Of a stretch of DNA of 64,000 bases, positions 3,594-32,527 are shown in pieces (positions within the stretch are counted from its first letter, which is position 1; each line of letters starts with the position of its first letter). Source of the stretch: Ostreococcus lucimarinus (taxonomy: Eukaryota); NCBI GenBank assembly GCA_000092065.1, contig CP000581.1. One strand, given 5' to 3'. Under the pieces are notes generated by a model, which did no database searches, was not told the origin of the DNA, and was given only the letters and a program-made list of their open reading frames with translations. The position numbers and the translations under genes are program-made.

Positions 3594-3970
3594 CGCGATT
3601 CGATTCGACGCGCGTCGAATGAACCCGTAATAACGCTCGCGCGCGTCCGCGTCCGTCGCCGATCGGCGTCCTCGACGACTGGTTTACCTGGCCAGAAGCA
3701 TTCAAAGAACCGTTTGACAGGTTTCGCGAACGGTGATTAGAATTCCTTGATGACGGTGATTATACATTTTGCGCCGCGGCGCGTCGTATTTAAGCACCGC
3801 GCGCGCCCATGATCGACACCGCGGCGAGGCGATAAAAACCACCCGGCGCGCGCGCGAAAGTGCCGCGCCCGCACTTTTCGGCCGTTGCCGCGCGCGCGTC
3901 GAATCTCGCCCCGACCCGCGCGTCGTCGACGCCGCGACGCGAGCGACGACGGCGCGCGCGTCGACGCGCG

Positions 3971-6550
3971 ATGGCGTCGAGCGCGCGCGCGCGGTCGGCG
4001 GACGCGGCGAGCGCGACGACGCCGACGACGGCGGACGCGACGTCGACGATGTTTGATTTGGGGAAATTCGGCGCGCGAGGCGCGGACGCGCGTGCGACGC
4101 GCGGGACGGCCGTTTCGGCGGCGCGAGGCGCGGGTGGTGGTGACGACGCGGTCGACGCGTCGGGCGCGGGGGACGCGCGGGCGCGGGCGCGCGCGACGCG
4201 GGCGACGGGGGGGGGGAAAGAGGACGGGTTGTTGGAGGAGACGGGGCGGGGGACGCTGAACCCGTTCGATATGGACGGCTCGGAGCGGGAGACGGTTCGA
4301 TTGAAACCCGGGATGACGCGGGGGCAGTTTGCGTTGTTGCTGGCGAGCGAGTGCGCGCTGGCGGTGGGACTGTTTGCGCTTTACACGATGATTGGATTCG
4401 GGGACGACGTGTACTCGGAACTGGCGAACGACGGTAATTGGCGTTTGTCGTGGGCCATCGCGGGTGGAAGCATGGCGCTTTTCGCTGTGCTGTGGATTTT
4501 GGATGCGATGGAGGCGGCTAGATCGCGAGGGCGCGCGATCCGGAGGACGGTGACGTTTCTTTTCGCGAGCGTCGGCGTCGGAGGATTGGTCGTGAGCGGG
4601 ATGCTGAGCGTGAAGGAGTACGAGACTTTGCCGCTGTCGTTCTACGTGCTCTTCAAGGCTGGGCTCATTCGCGTGTTCAAGGGAACAGTGTGCAAGCGAA
4701 CGCACAACGGGTCGTTTTTACGACACGTGGCGTACGCGAGCTACTTCGTCAGCTTCGCCTCGTTGACCGCTTGGATCGTGTGGGTCTTCGGGTGGGACAA
4801 AAAGTGGAGCAAGCGATTATTCGATGAGTTCTCTTTGCGACTCGGTTGCGACACGACGAGCACGAATGGCTCGTCGAACGCTGGCGACGGCGAGGCGGGT
4901 GGTTGTGACAACGTGGCGTACATCATGTACGCCGCGCCACTCGCGGTGTCGGCTTTGAACCTCGTCTACGGGCTCTCCTGCACCAAATTATCAAAGCAAT
5001 CCAGCGCGTTGCAATTGATCGCGATTCTCGCCGTGCTGGTCGCTTTCGGGACGTGGGTCAGCGTCTCTCTTTCCGCTATCGAAATGGGCGTCGCGAACGA
5101 CGTCATTCAGCTCGCGGTAGTGTTTTGCGCCATCTTCGGCGTCGCGTGTCTCATCACCGCCGGGCCTCACCGCATTTACCGACAATTGAACTCTTATCAA
5201 CTGACGAAGAAGGTCGTGGGTTACACGCAGACCGATTTGGCGAAAGCTCTTCTATTTTGTTGCACGATGACGTTATTGCCGTTTACTCTGGCGATATCAG
5301 CCGTCAGCGCGGCTGCACGGCGCGTCGGTCTCACCTTGCATAAACCGCCGCCGGACGCGCCGAAAGACGGATTTCTCACGTACTCCACCTATGCTCTGTT
5401 CGCGTGGTGGTTCGCGGATCCAACCAAAATTTTCAAATACTCTGCCTACTTATCCATTTTTTATTTCACCTTCTCCATCGGAGTCGGCAAGGGCGCGATT
5501 CTATTTCTTGCATGGTTGGTGGACGTGCTTGGAAGTTTGAACGAATACGTCGTCATCGGGGTTTTCATCGCTATAGGCGTGGGTATGTTTTTGCTTCCAC
5601 CAGTGCCTGGCCCGCCCATTTACCTCACCGGAGGTATTCTCGTCGTCGGCACGTGGGAACCGAAGATTGGATTCTGGCCCGCGGCGTTTTTGTGCTGCCT
5701 GGTGTGCTGGTTCACCAAGCTATTTTCTTGCGCACTCCAGCAGAAGCTGATTGGCGAACAAATGGGCAAAAAACCCTCGATTCGTTACGCGGTGGGTATA
5801 AACTCGCTAAACATGCGTGCGATTCGATACTGCTTGGAACAGAAAGGATTCTCCAGAGCGAAGATTGCTATTTTATGTGGCGGCCCTGACTGGCCGACGT
5901 CCGTGCTCTGCGGCATTCTCAAGCTCGACTTGCTGCAGATCATGATCGGTACTATGCCTGTTTTGGTTCTTTACCTCGGCTACACCACCATCGCAGGTGC
6001 GCTCCAACTAAAAGTTGGCTCTTGCGGAGGTGACGGCGCCGCTGCGAGCGACTCGAGTAGCTGGGGTTTGTTGAACTCGATGTTTTTGGCTCTTGCGTTT
6101 GTGAGCATGCTGTGCACGTCTCTTTCAGCGGTGTACTACATGGAACAAACTGTTCTCACAAAGCGCGAAGAGCTGGATGCGATGCCTATCGATGAAGAGG
6201 TAGAAGAACTCGAACGACTTGATCGAGCAAAAGAGGAAGCTTACGCAGCGGTTACCGACTGGAATCACCTTTCGACTTTGTCCAAGGTTTCGATTGTCGT
6301 CGCGGCTGTGTCGGGAGTTTTGAGCTGTCAACTTGGCGCCGTCCTTTCGCAACGCTCGTTCGAATCGTTCTCTGTATCGTGCCCGGTTGCGGTCAAAGAT
6401 GTGGTGAAGCCTACTGGTTGGGTGTCAGTCGGGTTAATTGTGGTGTGCACGATTTTCACGAGTATTTTCAGATCCATCGCGAAAAAGAACGTGCGCTCTG
6501 TGCTCAACGTAACGCAATCCGCGGCGCAAGCCACGGCGACTCGTCCGTGA
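3971..6550 (+). CDS. Multi-pass membrane protein of unknown family (about 859 aa from first ATG)
   Basis: The track ORF starts at GTG 3860; the first in-frame ATG is at 3971. Ala/Arg-rich N-terminus followed by more than 12 hydrophobic helices (FALLLASECALAVGLFALYTMIGF, WAIAGGSMALFAVLWIL, LFASVGVGGLVVSGML ...). TGTAA lies about 35 nt after the stop. Confidence 0.5.
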   Translation: MASSARARSADAASATTPTTADATSTMFDLGKFGARGADARATRGTAVSAARGAGGGDDAVDASGAGDARARARATRATGGGKEDGLLEETGRGTLNPFDMDGSERETVRLKPGMTRGQFALLLASECALAVGLFALYTMIGFGDDVYSELANDGNWRLSWAIAGGSMALFAVLWILDAMEAARSRGRAIRRTVTFLFASVGVGGLVVSGMLSVKEYETLPLSFYVLFKAGLIRVFKGTVCKRTHNGSFLRHVAYASYFVSFASLTAWIVWVFGWDKKWSKRLFDEFSLRLGCDTTSTNGSSNAGDGEAGGCDNVAYIMYAAPLAVSALNLVYGLSCTKLSKQSSALQLIAILAVLVAFGTWVSVSLSAIEMGVANDVIQLAVVFCAIFGVACLITAGPHRIYRQLNSYQLTKKVVGYTQTDLAKALLFCCTMTLLPFTLAISAVSAAARRVGLTLHKPPPDAPKDGFLTYSTYALFAWWFADPTKIFKYSAYLSIFYFTFSIGVGKGAILFLAWLVDVLGSLNEYVVIGVFIAIGVGMFLLPPVPGPPIYLTGGILVVGTWEPKIGFWPAAFLCCLVCWFTKLFSCALQQKLIGEQMGKKPSIRYAVGINSLNMRAIRYCLEQKGFSRAKIAILCGGPDWPTSVLCGILKLDLLQIMIGTMPVLVLYLGYTTIAGALQLKVGSCGGDGAAASDSSSWGLLNSMFLALAFVSMLCTSLSAVYYMEQTVLTKREELDAMPIDEEVEELERLDRAKEEAYAAVTDWNHLSTLSKVSIVVAAVSGVLSCQLGAVLSQRSFESFSVSCPVAVKDVVKPTGWVSVGLIVVCTIFTSIFRSIAKKNVRSVLNVTQSAAQATATRP

Positions 6551-6631
6551 GACCACACTGTATTATTTTGTACACCTACAGTACAGTGTAATGAAAAATT
6601 CAATAACCAATTCGATAACTTACATCAGAAG

Positions 6632-31939: not shown

Positions 31940-32083
31940 TCGTTCACATCGCCTCGCGCGTGGAGCACTATTGTTATAACTGAAGAAAACGCACAATCAA
32001 ACGCGCTCGGGCGCGCGCCTTGCCGAGAGAACAATCAATCAAACGACGCGCTTTCGATCGAAGCCTCGCGTGGCATTACAACA

Positions 32084-32527
32084 TCACGGAAACAACTTTT
32101 GCGAGAGCTCGCTCAGCACCGCGTTCACCCCTAACAACACCCCAGCGCTTCCGAAAATACCCGCCATCACCAACGCCGTCGTGCTCAGCGCGCCGCCCGC
32201 CGTCGGCCACTCAATCAACCCCACCTCCTCCGCCGCGCCGGCGAATATGTTCGCCCCGTCGTCCGCCTTCGCCTCTTTCGCCGCGCGAATCGCCGCACCG
32301 ATGTCTTCGCTCGTCGCCGCGCCGTCGCTCTCCGCCGCCGCGCGTCCGTCGTCGTCGCCGTCGTCGTTCGTCGTCGTCGTCGGCTCGTCGTCGTCCGCGG
32401 TCGCCGTCGCGACGCCCGCGCGCGCGCGACGCGCGACGCGCGTCGTCCGCGCGCGCGCCGTCGTCCGCGCGCGCGCCGTCACCGACGCGGTCGTCGGCGT
32501 CGCCGCGCGGCTCGGTCGGGCGAGCAT
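32084..32527 (-). CDS. Small organelle-targeted single-pass membrane protein (147 aa)
   Basis: True ATG at 32527. Presequence-like N-terminus, acidic linker, then C-terminal TM GGALSTTALVMAGIFGSAGVLLGV. TGTAA on the minus strand after the stop. Resembles small nuclear-encoded thylakoid or mitochondrial subunits, but the family is unassigned. Confidence 0.4.
   Translation of the reverse strand: MLARPSRAATPTTASVTARARTTARARTTRVARRARAGVATATADDDEPTTTTNDDGDDDGRAAAESDGAATSEDIGAAIRAAKEAKADDGANIFAGAAEEVGLIEWPTAGGALSTTALVMAGIFGSAGVLLGVNAVLSELSQKLFP

Follow-up and report, generated by a model that had tools for sequence, protein, structure and literature searches.

A stretch of 64,000 nucleotides (the window; GC ~61%), taken to be chromosome 1 of Ostreococcus lucimarinus CCE9901, was analysed for the arrangement of its genes. 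The encoded products are of eukaryotic type, including ARPC4, TAF10, Rad50, mitochondrial carriers and a four-domain Ca channel. Between positions 2496 and 32527, 23 consecutive genes lie on strictly alternating strands, with a switch (-,+) at 22/22 junctions. All genes were re-derived for this count from open reading frames (ORFs), GC content by codon position and a codon-usage frame score; the run, reported in the initial annotation, is real. Support for each gene comes from Pfam, from an identical public protein or from the same order and strand being kept in other Ostreococcus species (Table 1). Clear Pfam domains are present in 14 of the 23 genes and weak matches in three more (COX7C, Dockerin_1, SecE). 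Ten products match a public protein collection exactly, five of them with O. lucimarinus XP accessions. In the larger gaps of the run, neither a conserved coding signal nor a tRNA or Rfam match was detected, and tRNA and Rfam searches of the whole window gave no match either. Consecutive same-strand genes behind one promoter, as in an operon, do not occur in the run: the strand switches at every junction. Alternation had been claimed to survive the loss of the four weakest small genes. This applies to the removal of adjacent pairs, while removal of a single gene anywhere breaks the pattern. The run ends at gene 23, as the following gene (32710-35556) likewise lies on the minus strand.

Table 1. 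Genes of the alternating run and two of its gaps, with positions in the window, strand and supporting evidence (L002 and L006, contigs of Ostreococcus-like genomes; L007, Bathycoccus-like contig; L001 and L012, further, independent contigs; L008, RNA-derived contig).
Feature	Position	Strand	Support
Gene 1, lysine methyltransferase (Methyltransf_16)	2496..3593	-	PF10294, E = 7.6e-18; 365-aa call repeated on L012
Gene 2, 859 aa, without Pfam domain	3971..6550	+	Long ORF, coding-frame signal; identical call on L001, L012
Gene 3, 765 aa, without Pfam domain	6632..8929	-	Best-scoring start 8929; 765 aa also on L001, L012
Gene 4, DUF1365 protein	9179..10096	+	PF07103, E = 7.7e-44; exact 305-aa public product
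Gene 5, class 3 lipase	10200..11156	-	PF01764, E = 3.2e-33
Gene 6, ARP2/3 complex subunit 4 (ARPC4)	11235..11750	+	PF05856, E = 5.9e-60; exact XP_001415417.1
Gene 7, 450 aa, without Pfam domain	11864..13216	-	60% identity over 295 aa to syntenic L002 ORF, same relative strand
Gene 8, HemN-like radical SAM protein	13277..14659	+	PF04055 and PF06969; 73% identity to L002
Gene 9, SAP-domain, Tho1/MOS11-like	14710..15477	-	PF02037, E = 1.2e-10; 54% identity to L002
Gene 10, DnaJ and 4Fe-4S ferredoxin-domain protein	15575..16957	+	PF00226, PF13370
Gene 11, COX16 (cytochrome c oxidase assembly)	17104..17388	-	PF14138, E = 5.5e-13; exact XP_001415767.1
Divergent gap between COX16 and COX7c-like start codons, 47 bp	17389..17435		Sequence read directly; spanned by L008
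Gene 12, COX7c-like, 83 aa, exons 17436-17537, 17727-17855, 17988-18008	17436..18008	+	GT/AG boundaries read directly
Gene 13, TAF10	18158..18760	-	PF03540, E = 1.8e-30
Gene 14, FAST/RESC6-like	18829..20763	+	PF06743; orthologs across Mamiellales only
Gene 15, arogenate/prephenate dehydratase	20859..22016	-	PF00800, E = 6.8e-60; homologs found
Gene 16, 98-aa hydrophilic protein with Ca-binding-loop-like motif	22196..22492	+	Exact XP_001415421.1; syntenic L002 ORF
Gene 17, 214 aa	22707..23351	-	Exact public product; 71% identity to L002, 33% to Bathycoccus
Gene 18, 310 aa, exons 23428-23610, 23728-24477	23428..24477	+	Spliced product equals XP_001415422.1 exactly
Convergent gap between genes 18 and 19, 55 bp	24478..24532		Crossed TGTAA: + strand at 24511, - strand at 24492
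Gene 19, Rad50	24533..28608	-	Pfam AAA_23, Rad50 zinc hook, SbcC Walker B
Gene 20, 130-aa zinc-ribbon-like protein	28711..29103	+	Exact public product; 55-63% identity to L002, L006
Gene 21, mitochondrial carrier	29210..30766	-	PF00153, three repeats
Gene 22, 306 aa	31019..31939	+	Exact public product; 72% identity to L002, 55% to L007
Gene 23, 147-aa SecE-like membrane protein, end of run	32084..32527	-	Weak SecE match, E = 0.007; strong coding score, GC3 0.89

Three gene models needed splicing, those of Rad50, the gene ending at 24477 and the COX7c-like gene. An 18-nt first exon (28591-28608) followed by a 134-nt intron (28457-28590) gives Rad50 its canonical N-terminus MCTVDKLLIKGIRSF, which establishes the start at 28608. 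The ORF of gene 3 extends to 9793, with the extension antisense to gene 4. For gene 9, an in-frame ATG 5' of the SAP domain was not found: the nearest ATGs lie in another frame or run into a stop. This may be due to a short intron that was overlooked, to initiation at a codon other than ATG or to an error in the sequence. The starts of genes 17 and 18 are separated by 76 bp, and gene 17 keeps its relative order and strand in L002 and in Bathycoccus. The GenBank model of gene 20 is a 51-aa partial (XP_001415423.1).

The COX7c-like gene and contig L008

Gene 12 is the weakest link of the run. Its product matches the COX7C profile over the full length at a weak score (E = 0.11). The GenBank/UniProt annotation of O. 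lucimarinus apparently lacks the gene: the UniProt accessions of the neighbourhood (A4RQN4 for ARPC4, then those ending in N9 for COX16, P3, P5, P7 and P9) rise by one per listed gene if the COX7c-like gene is skipped. With this gene missing, COX16 and TAF10 would be same-strand neighbours in the public annotation, and two runs of 11 and 12 genes would replace the single run. Three findings establish the gene as real. Identity to L002 is 91% over exon 2, precisely between AG and GT, and the Bathycoccus prasinos annotation has an 83-aa gene at the corresponding position. The exact spliced protein is encoded on L008, a 906-bp Logan contig from run SRR28369223. As both introns are missing from L008 although they are present in the reference, and apparently also in L002, the contig is best explained as RNA-derived. 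A second candidate RNA contig, L013, was rejected as genomic.

L008 aligns to 16850-18096, introns removed, and is unbroken over five features. It starts in the last part of the DnaJ-ferredoxin gene, crosses the convergent gap (146 bp), COX16 on the opposite strand and the divergent gap (47 bp), and continues into the spliced COX7c-like gene with 88 nt of 3' untranslated region; it ends ~15 nt past a TGTAC. As an unbroken k-mer assembly it indicates RNA over both gaps. This supports overlapping 3' ends within the DnaJ/COX16/COX7c-like trio, together with 5' ends that either overlap or abut. The bidirectional promoters and overlapping 5' transcripts put forward in the initial annotation are consistent with the CpG-rich divergent gaps and with L008 over the 47-bp gap, where the 5' ends may overlap or abut. 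At its other end, L008 stops at the edge of a direct repeat, DDDDGVHARDAVD, which occurs twice in the acidic tail of the DnaJ-ferredoxin C-terminus (16850-16957).

Composition and signals of the gaps

Gap statistics were obtained from 43 curated genes over the whole window. Divergent gaps (n=16) have a median length of 99.5 bp, a GC content of 0.73 and 0.27 CpG per bp, and convergent gaps (n=16) a median of 88 bp and a GC content of 0.49. Tandem gaps (n=10; median 164 bp, GC 0.62) change in composition from AT-rich beside the upstream stop to GC-rich beside the downstream ATG. In this small sample (16/16/10), opposite-strand gaps are shorter than tandem gaps, and the tandem median is approximately the sum of the divergent and convergent medians.

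The 11 divergent pairs of the run have ATG-to-ATG distances of 47-377 bp, all below 1 kb. Previously listed distances of 60 bp (13216/13277), 68 bp (18760/18829), 78 bp (11156/11235) and 102 bp (28608/28711) were reproduced, as were those beyond the run, 72 bp (36420/36493), 106 bp (53062/53169) and 62 bp (58369/58432). Beside COX16, a 1-bp shift changes 46 bp (17388/17435) into 47 bp (17388/17436). Convergent stops are separated by 50 bp (14659/14710), 55 bp (24477/24533), 52 bp (38736/38789) and 10 bp (50100/50111), again as given before. The last of these gaps, 50101-50110, lies between the convergent genes 47290-50100 (+) and 50111-53062 (-).

For O. lucimarinus, UGUAA has been published as the poly(A) signal (PMC6413133). 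The convergent gaps, 1,539 bp in total, contain TGTAA/TTACA 15 times, compared with 33 occurrences in 57.7 kb of genes. On the sense strand, TGTAA lies no more than 100 nt past the stop in 19/43 genes and upstream of the ATG in 1/43. The palindrome TGTACA was found five times in the convergent gaps and four times in the 57.7 kb of genes; the five sites (6570-6575, 10167-10172, 11777-11782, 38781-38786 and 63033-63038) are located in five different gaps. Being identical on both strands, TGTACA could, judged from its sequence and position, serve as a form of the UGUAA signal that works in both directions. TGTAA signals of both strands face each other in the gaps E/F and K/L (labels of the curated genes) and are crossed in U/V and AN/AO, so that in the crossed cases each transcript runs beyond the signal of its partner. 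With cleavage 10-30 nt past the signal, assumed as the usual spacing, facing and crossed signals imply overlap of the mRNA 3' ends. The overlapping 3' ends predicted in the initial annotation are supported by the crossed signals, by L008 over a convergent gap and by expressed sequence tags (ESTs) of O. lucimarinus, where 8.9% of clusters merge opposite-strand transcripts with 3' overlaps (PMC2367439).

Two further motifs lie close to start codons and a third in a divergent gap. GCCGCAC (CCGCAC[T/A]) is found in sense orientation at most 70 nt 5' of the ATG in 7/41 genes, with 0.47 expected (e.g. 17393-17399, 23392-23398, 32537-32543 and 40006-40012), and could represent a candidate core-promoter or initiator element. 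An assignment of start sites by CCGCAC was rejected: the implied back-to-back starts leave the gap uncovered, yet L008 covers it. GCGCG abuts the start codon in at least 16 of the 43 genes, often as GACGCGCG-ATG-GCG (e.g. 3963-3970, 9171-9178, 18761-18768 and 36485-36492). This would reflect either a remarkably constant sequence context of the start codon or a minimal leader of CG repeats. Genes 21 and 22 are separated by a divergent gap of 252 bp (30767-31018) that contains GTGTAAACCCTAATCCGAAAAACCCTCG. Part of it is AAACCCTAA, a match to the plant 'telo-box' promoter element.

Conservation of the block and background alternation

Synteny was traced with the curated proteins. A tblastn search of stop-to-stop ORFs was dropped, as composition correction lost HemN and its omission led to swamping by low-complexity matches; the strain represented by L005 is too close to discriminate reading frames. 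Seventeen genes, from ARPC4 to the 306-aa gene, have the same order and relative strands in the Ostreococcus-like L002 (GC 0.58, 34-83% protein identity). The second Ostreococcus-like genome, L006, agrees in order and strand, minus one undetected small gene and two genes past the contig end. Conservation of the pairings in related species, suggested earlier as a check, is therefore found in both genomes. In Bathycoccus prasinos (L011, NCBI gene models), gene content and order agree except that three additional genes are present and the SAP/DnaJ pair is missing; 13/16 junctions alternate. The DUF1365 ortholog adjoins the lipase gene in Bathycoccus. In the Bathycoccus-like L007 (GC 0.44), the mitochondrial carrier gene is missing, too. 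Two Micromonas-like contigs (GC 0.67) alternate at 6/9 junctions. Here, HemN is located on the opposite strand, which results in three consecutive same-strand genes, and a peptidase S9 gene and another gene are inserted between the FAST-like and dehydratase genes. COX16 was not found beside a COX7c-like gene in these two contigs.

Alternation in the block thus increases from Micromonas-like contigs (6/9) over Bathycoccus (13/16) to Ostreococcus (22/22). Genome size falls in the same order, the smaller genomes having the more complete alternation in this block. A large part of the pattern is old, and the perfect Ostreococcus run reflects a handful of lineage-specific changes, whichever state is the derived one.

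Curated genes of the whole window alternate at 32/42 junctions. Outside the run, 16/26 junctions do so in the window and the 10 kb to its left. An independent estimate was derived from compact, GC-rich picoeukaryote loci, metagenome contigs found via a Rab/Ras GTPase motif with a coding density of at least 75% and a GC content of 0.57-0.70. A codon-model gene caller developed for this analysis gave 32/53 = 0.60 alternating junctions on these loci; with start optimisation, it has a slight downward bias (30/41 on the window versus the curated 32/42). An earlier automatic caller without start optimisation reached 24/37 versus the curated 32/42, with several genes missed or split. The FAST-like family, considered as a route to paralogous loci, led to orthologs only and was not used for the background. 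Head-to-head pair counts in O. tauri imply an alternation of 0.49-0.58 (PMC4035068).

At an alternation probability p of 0.5, a set of 7,600 genes should contain ~0.0009 runs with 22 or more alternations. The number increases to 0.04-0.1 per 7,600-gene genome at p = 0.60-0.63 and to ~2 per genome at p = 0.73, the upper confidence limit. The chance of about 2^-22 quoted in the initial annotation is not upheld, as it presupposes 50% alternation where the background is ~60%. The run is unusual, yet far less improbable than this figure.

In the 10 kb to the left of the window (L012, 12639-20729), seven further alternating genes are followed by four same-strand genes and then by the run. They encode a TPR/APC3-like protein, ribosomal protein S10e, phosphoglucomutase, an N6-adenine methylase-like protein, Nse4, a 496-aa protein and a TLC-domain protein. 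Their alternation assumes that one called 75-aa ORF is spurious.

Interpretation of the run

The run probably represents the usual way in which nuclear genes are arranged in a highly compact picoeukaryote, taken to its extreme, with gaps composed of two short modules. A CpG-rich promoter module would lie beside start codons and an AT-rich, UGUAA-bearing 3'-end module beside stops. This reading is based on the contrasting compositions of the gaps, on a tandem length near the sum of the other two classes and on the placement of the poly(A) signals. Between opposite-strand neighbours one module would serve both genes, whereas same-strand neighbours would need both modules in series. A divergent gap would then be a single promoter region of ~50-100 bp common to both genes. 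A convergent gap would be a single terminator region of ~50-100 bp, with facing or crossing poly(A) signals and mRNA ends overlapping by tens of nt. Alternation would keep the non-coding overhead at a minimum and read-through out of the promoter of the next gene, and both effects may have favoured it. The block would have been mostly alternating in the common ancestor with Bathycoccus and perfected in Ostreococcus via a few gene gains and losses and perhaps one single-gene inversion. Its persistence may be due to the tiny common gaps, in which a breakpoint would harm two genes together.

The run is an extreme local instance of a known compact-genome organisation, not a new kind of system or mechanism. 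Literature searches revealed no paper on this run, on the two-class gap composition or on TGTACA palindromes in Ostreococcus, nor were Ostreococcus-specific gene-orientation statistics found. Cock et al. are said to have described in 2010 a strand-alternation bias of adjacent genes in Ectocarpus. In brown algae, more than 50% of adjacent genes lie on opposite strands, and divergent gaps are shorter than tandem ones and contain common nucleosome-free promoter regions (bioRxiv 10.1101/2024.02.19.579948). The window has the same ordering of gap lengths and an opposite-strand fraction above 0.5. However, the brown-algal bias is statistical, at ~60% or slightly more, while the Ostreococcus run comprises 22 consecutive junctions with gaps of 47-377 bp and has the terminator side in common as well. 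In bidirectional promoters of yeast, mammals and plants, two genes likewise diverge from a short GC/CpG-rich region. The usual limit there is <1 kb, whereas the ATG-to-ATG distance here is mostly 47-110 bp and functional pairing is evident in one of 11 pairs.

Transcripts of microsporidia and nucleomorphs reportedly often traverse whole neighbouring genes, a finding ascribed to Williams et al. (2005). As in these organisms and in the known 3' overlaps of Ostreococcus (PMC2367439), short gaps appear to lead to transcript overlap, and L008 spans three genes. In contrast to microsporidia and nucleomorphs, Ostreococcus keeps UGUAA signals for both strands, and the predicted overlap amounts to tens of nt. 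In yeast bidirectional termination zones, a short AT-rich region ends transcription in both directions and 3' overlap is possible (bioRxiv 10.1101/2022.11.02.514956; PMC6993858). The convergent gaps resemble these zones, but their predicted signal is the UGUAA of green algae, in some cases in the palindromic form TGTACA. If the pattern is genome-wide, the block would be a natural example of the limits to shrinking and sharing eukaryotic promoters and terminators, with two-way promoter regions of 47-100 bp and two-way terminators of 50-100 bp for unrelated genes. It could then be of use in compact expression cassettes for Ostreococcus and related algae and in testing transcriptional interference as a shaper of gene order.

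Several points weigh against a compaction-driven two-module organisation. Background alternation is only ~0.6, and therefore any advantage must be weak genome-wide. Some tandem gaps in the window measure just 35-87 bp, hence same-strand neighbours can pack tightly, too. At the 10-bp gap 50100/50111, TGTAA was not found within ~100 nt on either strand; the AT-rich last codons of the LRR gene (TTTTATTTATATA) may serve as terminator region there. The transcript evidence consists of the single contig L008, an unstranded assembly from a related strain (93-99% identity). Finally, the run might have arisen as an extreme by chance and then been frozen.

This last alternative, although unlikely, carries some weight. 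Junctions would be nearly independent at ~60% alternation, and the run would be the longest, or among the few longest, with no selective meaning beyond the fragility of its short gaps. Both background estimates, 16/26 locally and 32/53 in the independent loci, agree with it, and at the upper confidence limit ~2 such runs per genome are expected. The run was picked up in a search for oddities, which introduces a look-elsewhere effect, and a functional relation is recognised in just one of the 11 divergent pairs. On the other hand, fewer than 0.1 runs per genome are expected at the best estimate of p, a second alternating stretch of seven genes lies immediately upstream, and alternation in the block climbs toward the smaller genomes.

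A stronger version of the two-module organisation, with strict alternation as a 'one gap, one function' architecture actively selected in those free-living eukaryotes that have the smallest genomes, is put forward tentatively and is rather doubtful. Each gap would act in both directions, as a promoter or as a terminator, with a palindromic TGTACA serving both strands in some, and the state would have been reached by single-gene inversions and by gene losses and gains that removed tandem junctions. Long perfect runs would then be commoner than predicted from independent junctions.

Selection for paired, co-regulated transcription units, as suggested in the initial annotation, has little support from the gene annotation and is improbable. 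Each head-to-head pair would be driven from one bidirectional promoter. COX16 and the COX7c-like gene fit this view, being both linked to cytochrome c oxidase, separated by 47 bp and adjacent and divergent in Bathycoccus as well, and divergent pairs are kept across Ostreococcus species. However, the other ten divergent pairs are functionally unrelated, e.g. lipase/ARPC4, TAF10/FAST-like and Rad50/zinc-ribbon. Several pairs are broken or different in Bathycoccus and Micromonas, and COX16 was not found beside the COX7c-like gene in the Micromonas-like contigs.

A gene-calling artefact, caused by spurious small or antisense ORFs in GC-rich DNA, is most improbable and was rejected on the gene-by-gene support: long shadow ORFs exist and automatic calling missed or split several genes, but all 23 genes are supported by Pfam, by an identical public protein or by a conserved syntenic ortholog, the COX7c-like gene has transcript evidence, and the larger gaps are free of conserved coding signal and of tRNA or Rfam matches. 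Shadow ORFs antisense to or beyond real genes are located at 22707-24338 (-; 543 aa) and 8390-10096 (+; 568 aa). The former even shows 54% identity in an alignment with the related species, as the gene that it mirrors is conserved; in such GC-rich DNA, shadow ORFs are a trap for ORF-based gene calling. The GC content per 2-kb segment ranges from 0.49 to 0.74 and is strongly gene-dependent. GC3 is 0.59-0.65 in the longest genes (Rad50, Ca channel, coiled-coil and LRR; 24533-28608, 41820-46688 and 47290-53062) and 0.80-0.91 in many short genes (e.g. 11235-13216 and 28711-29103).

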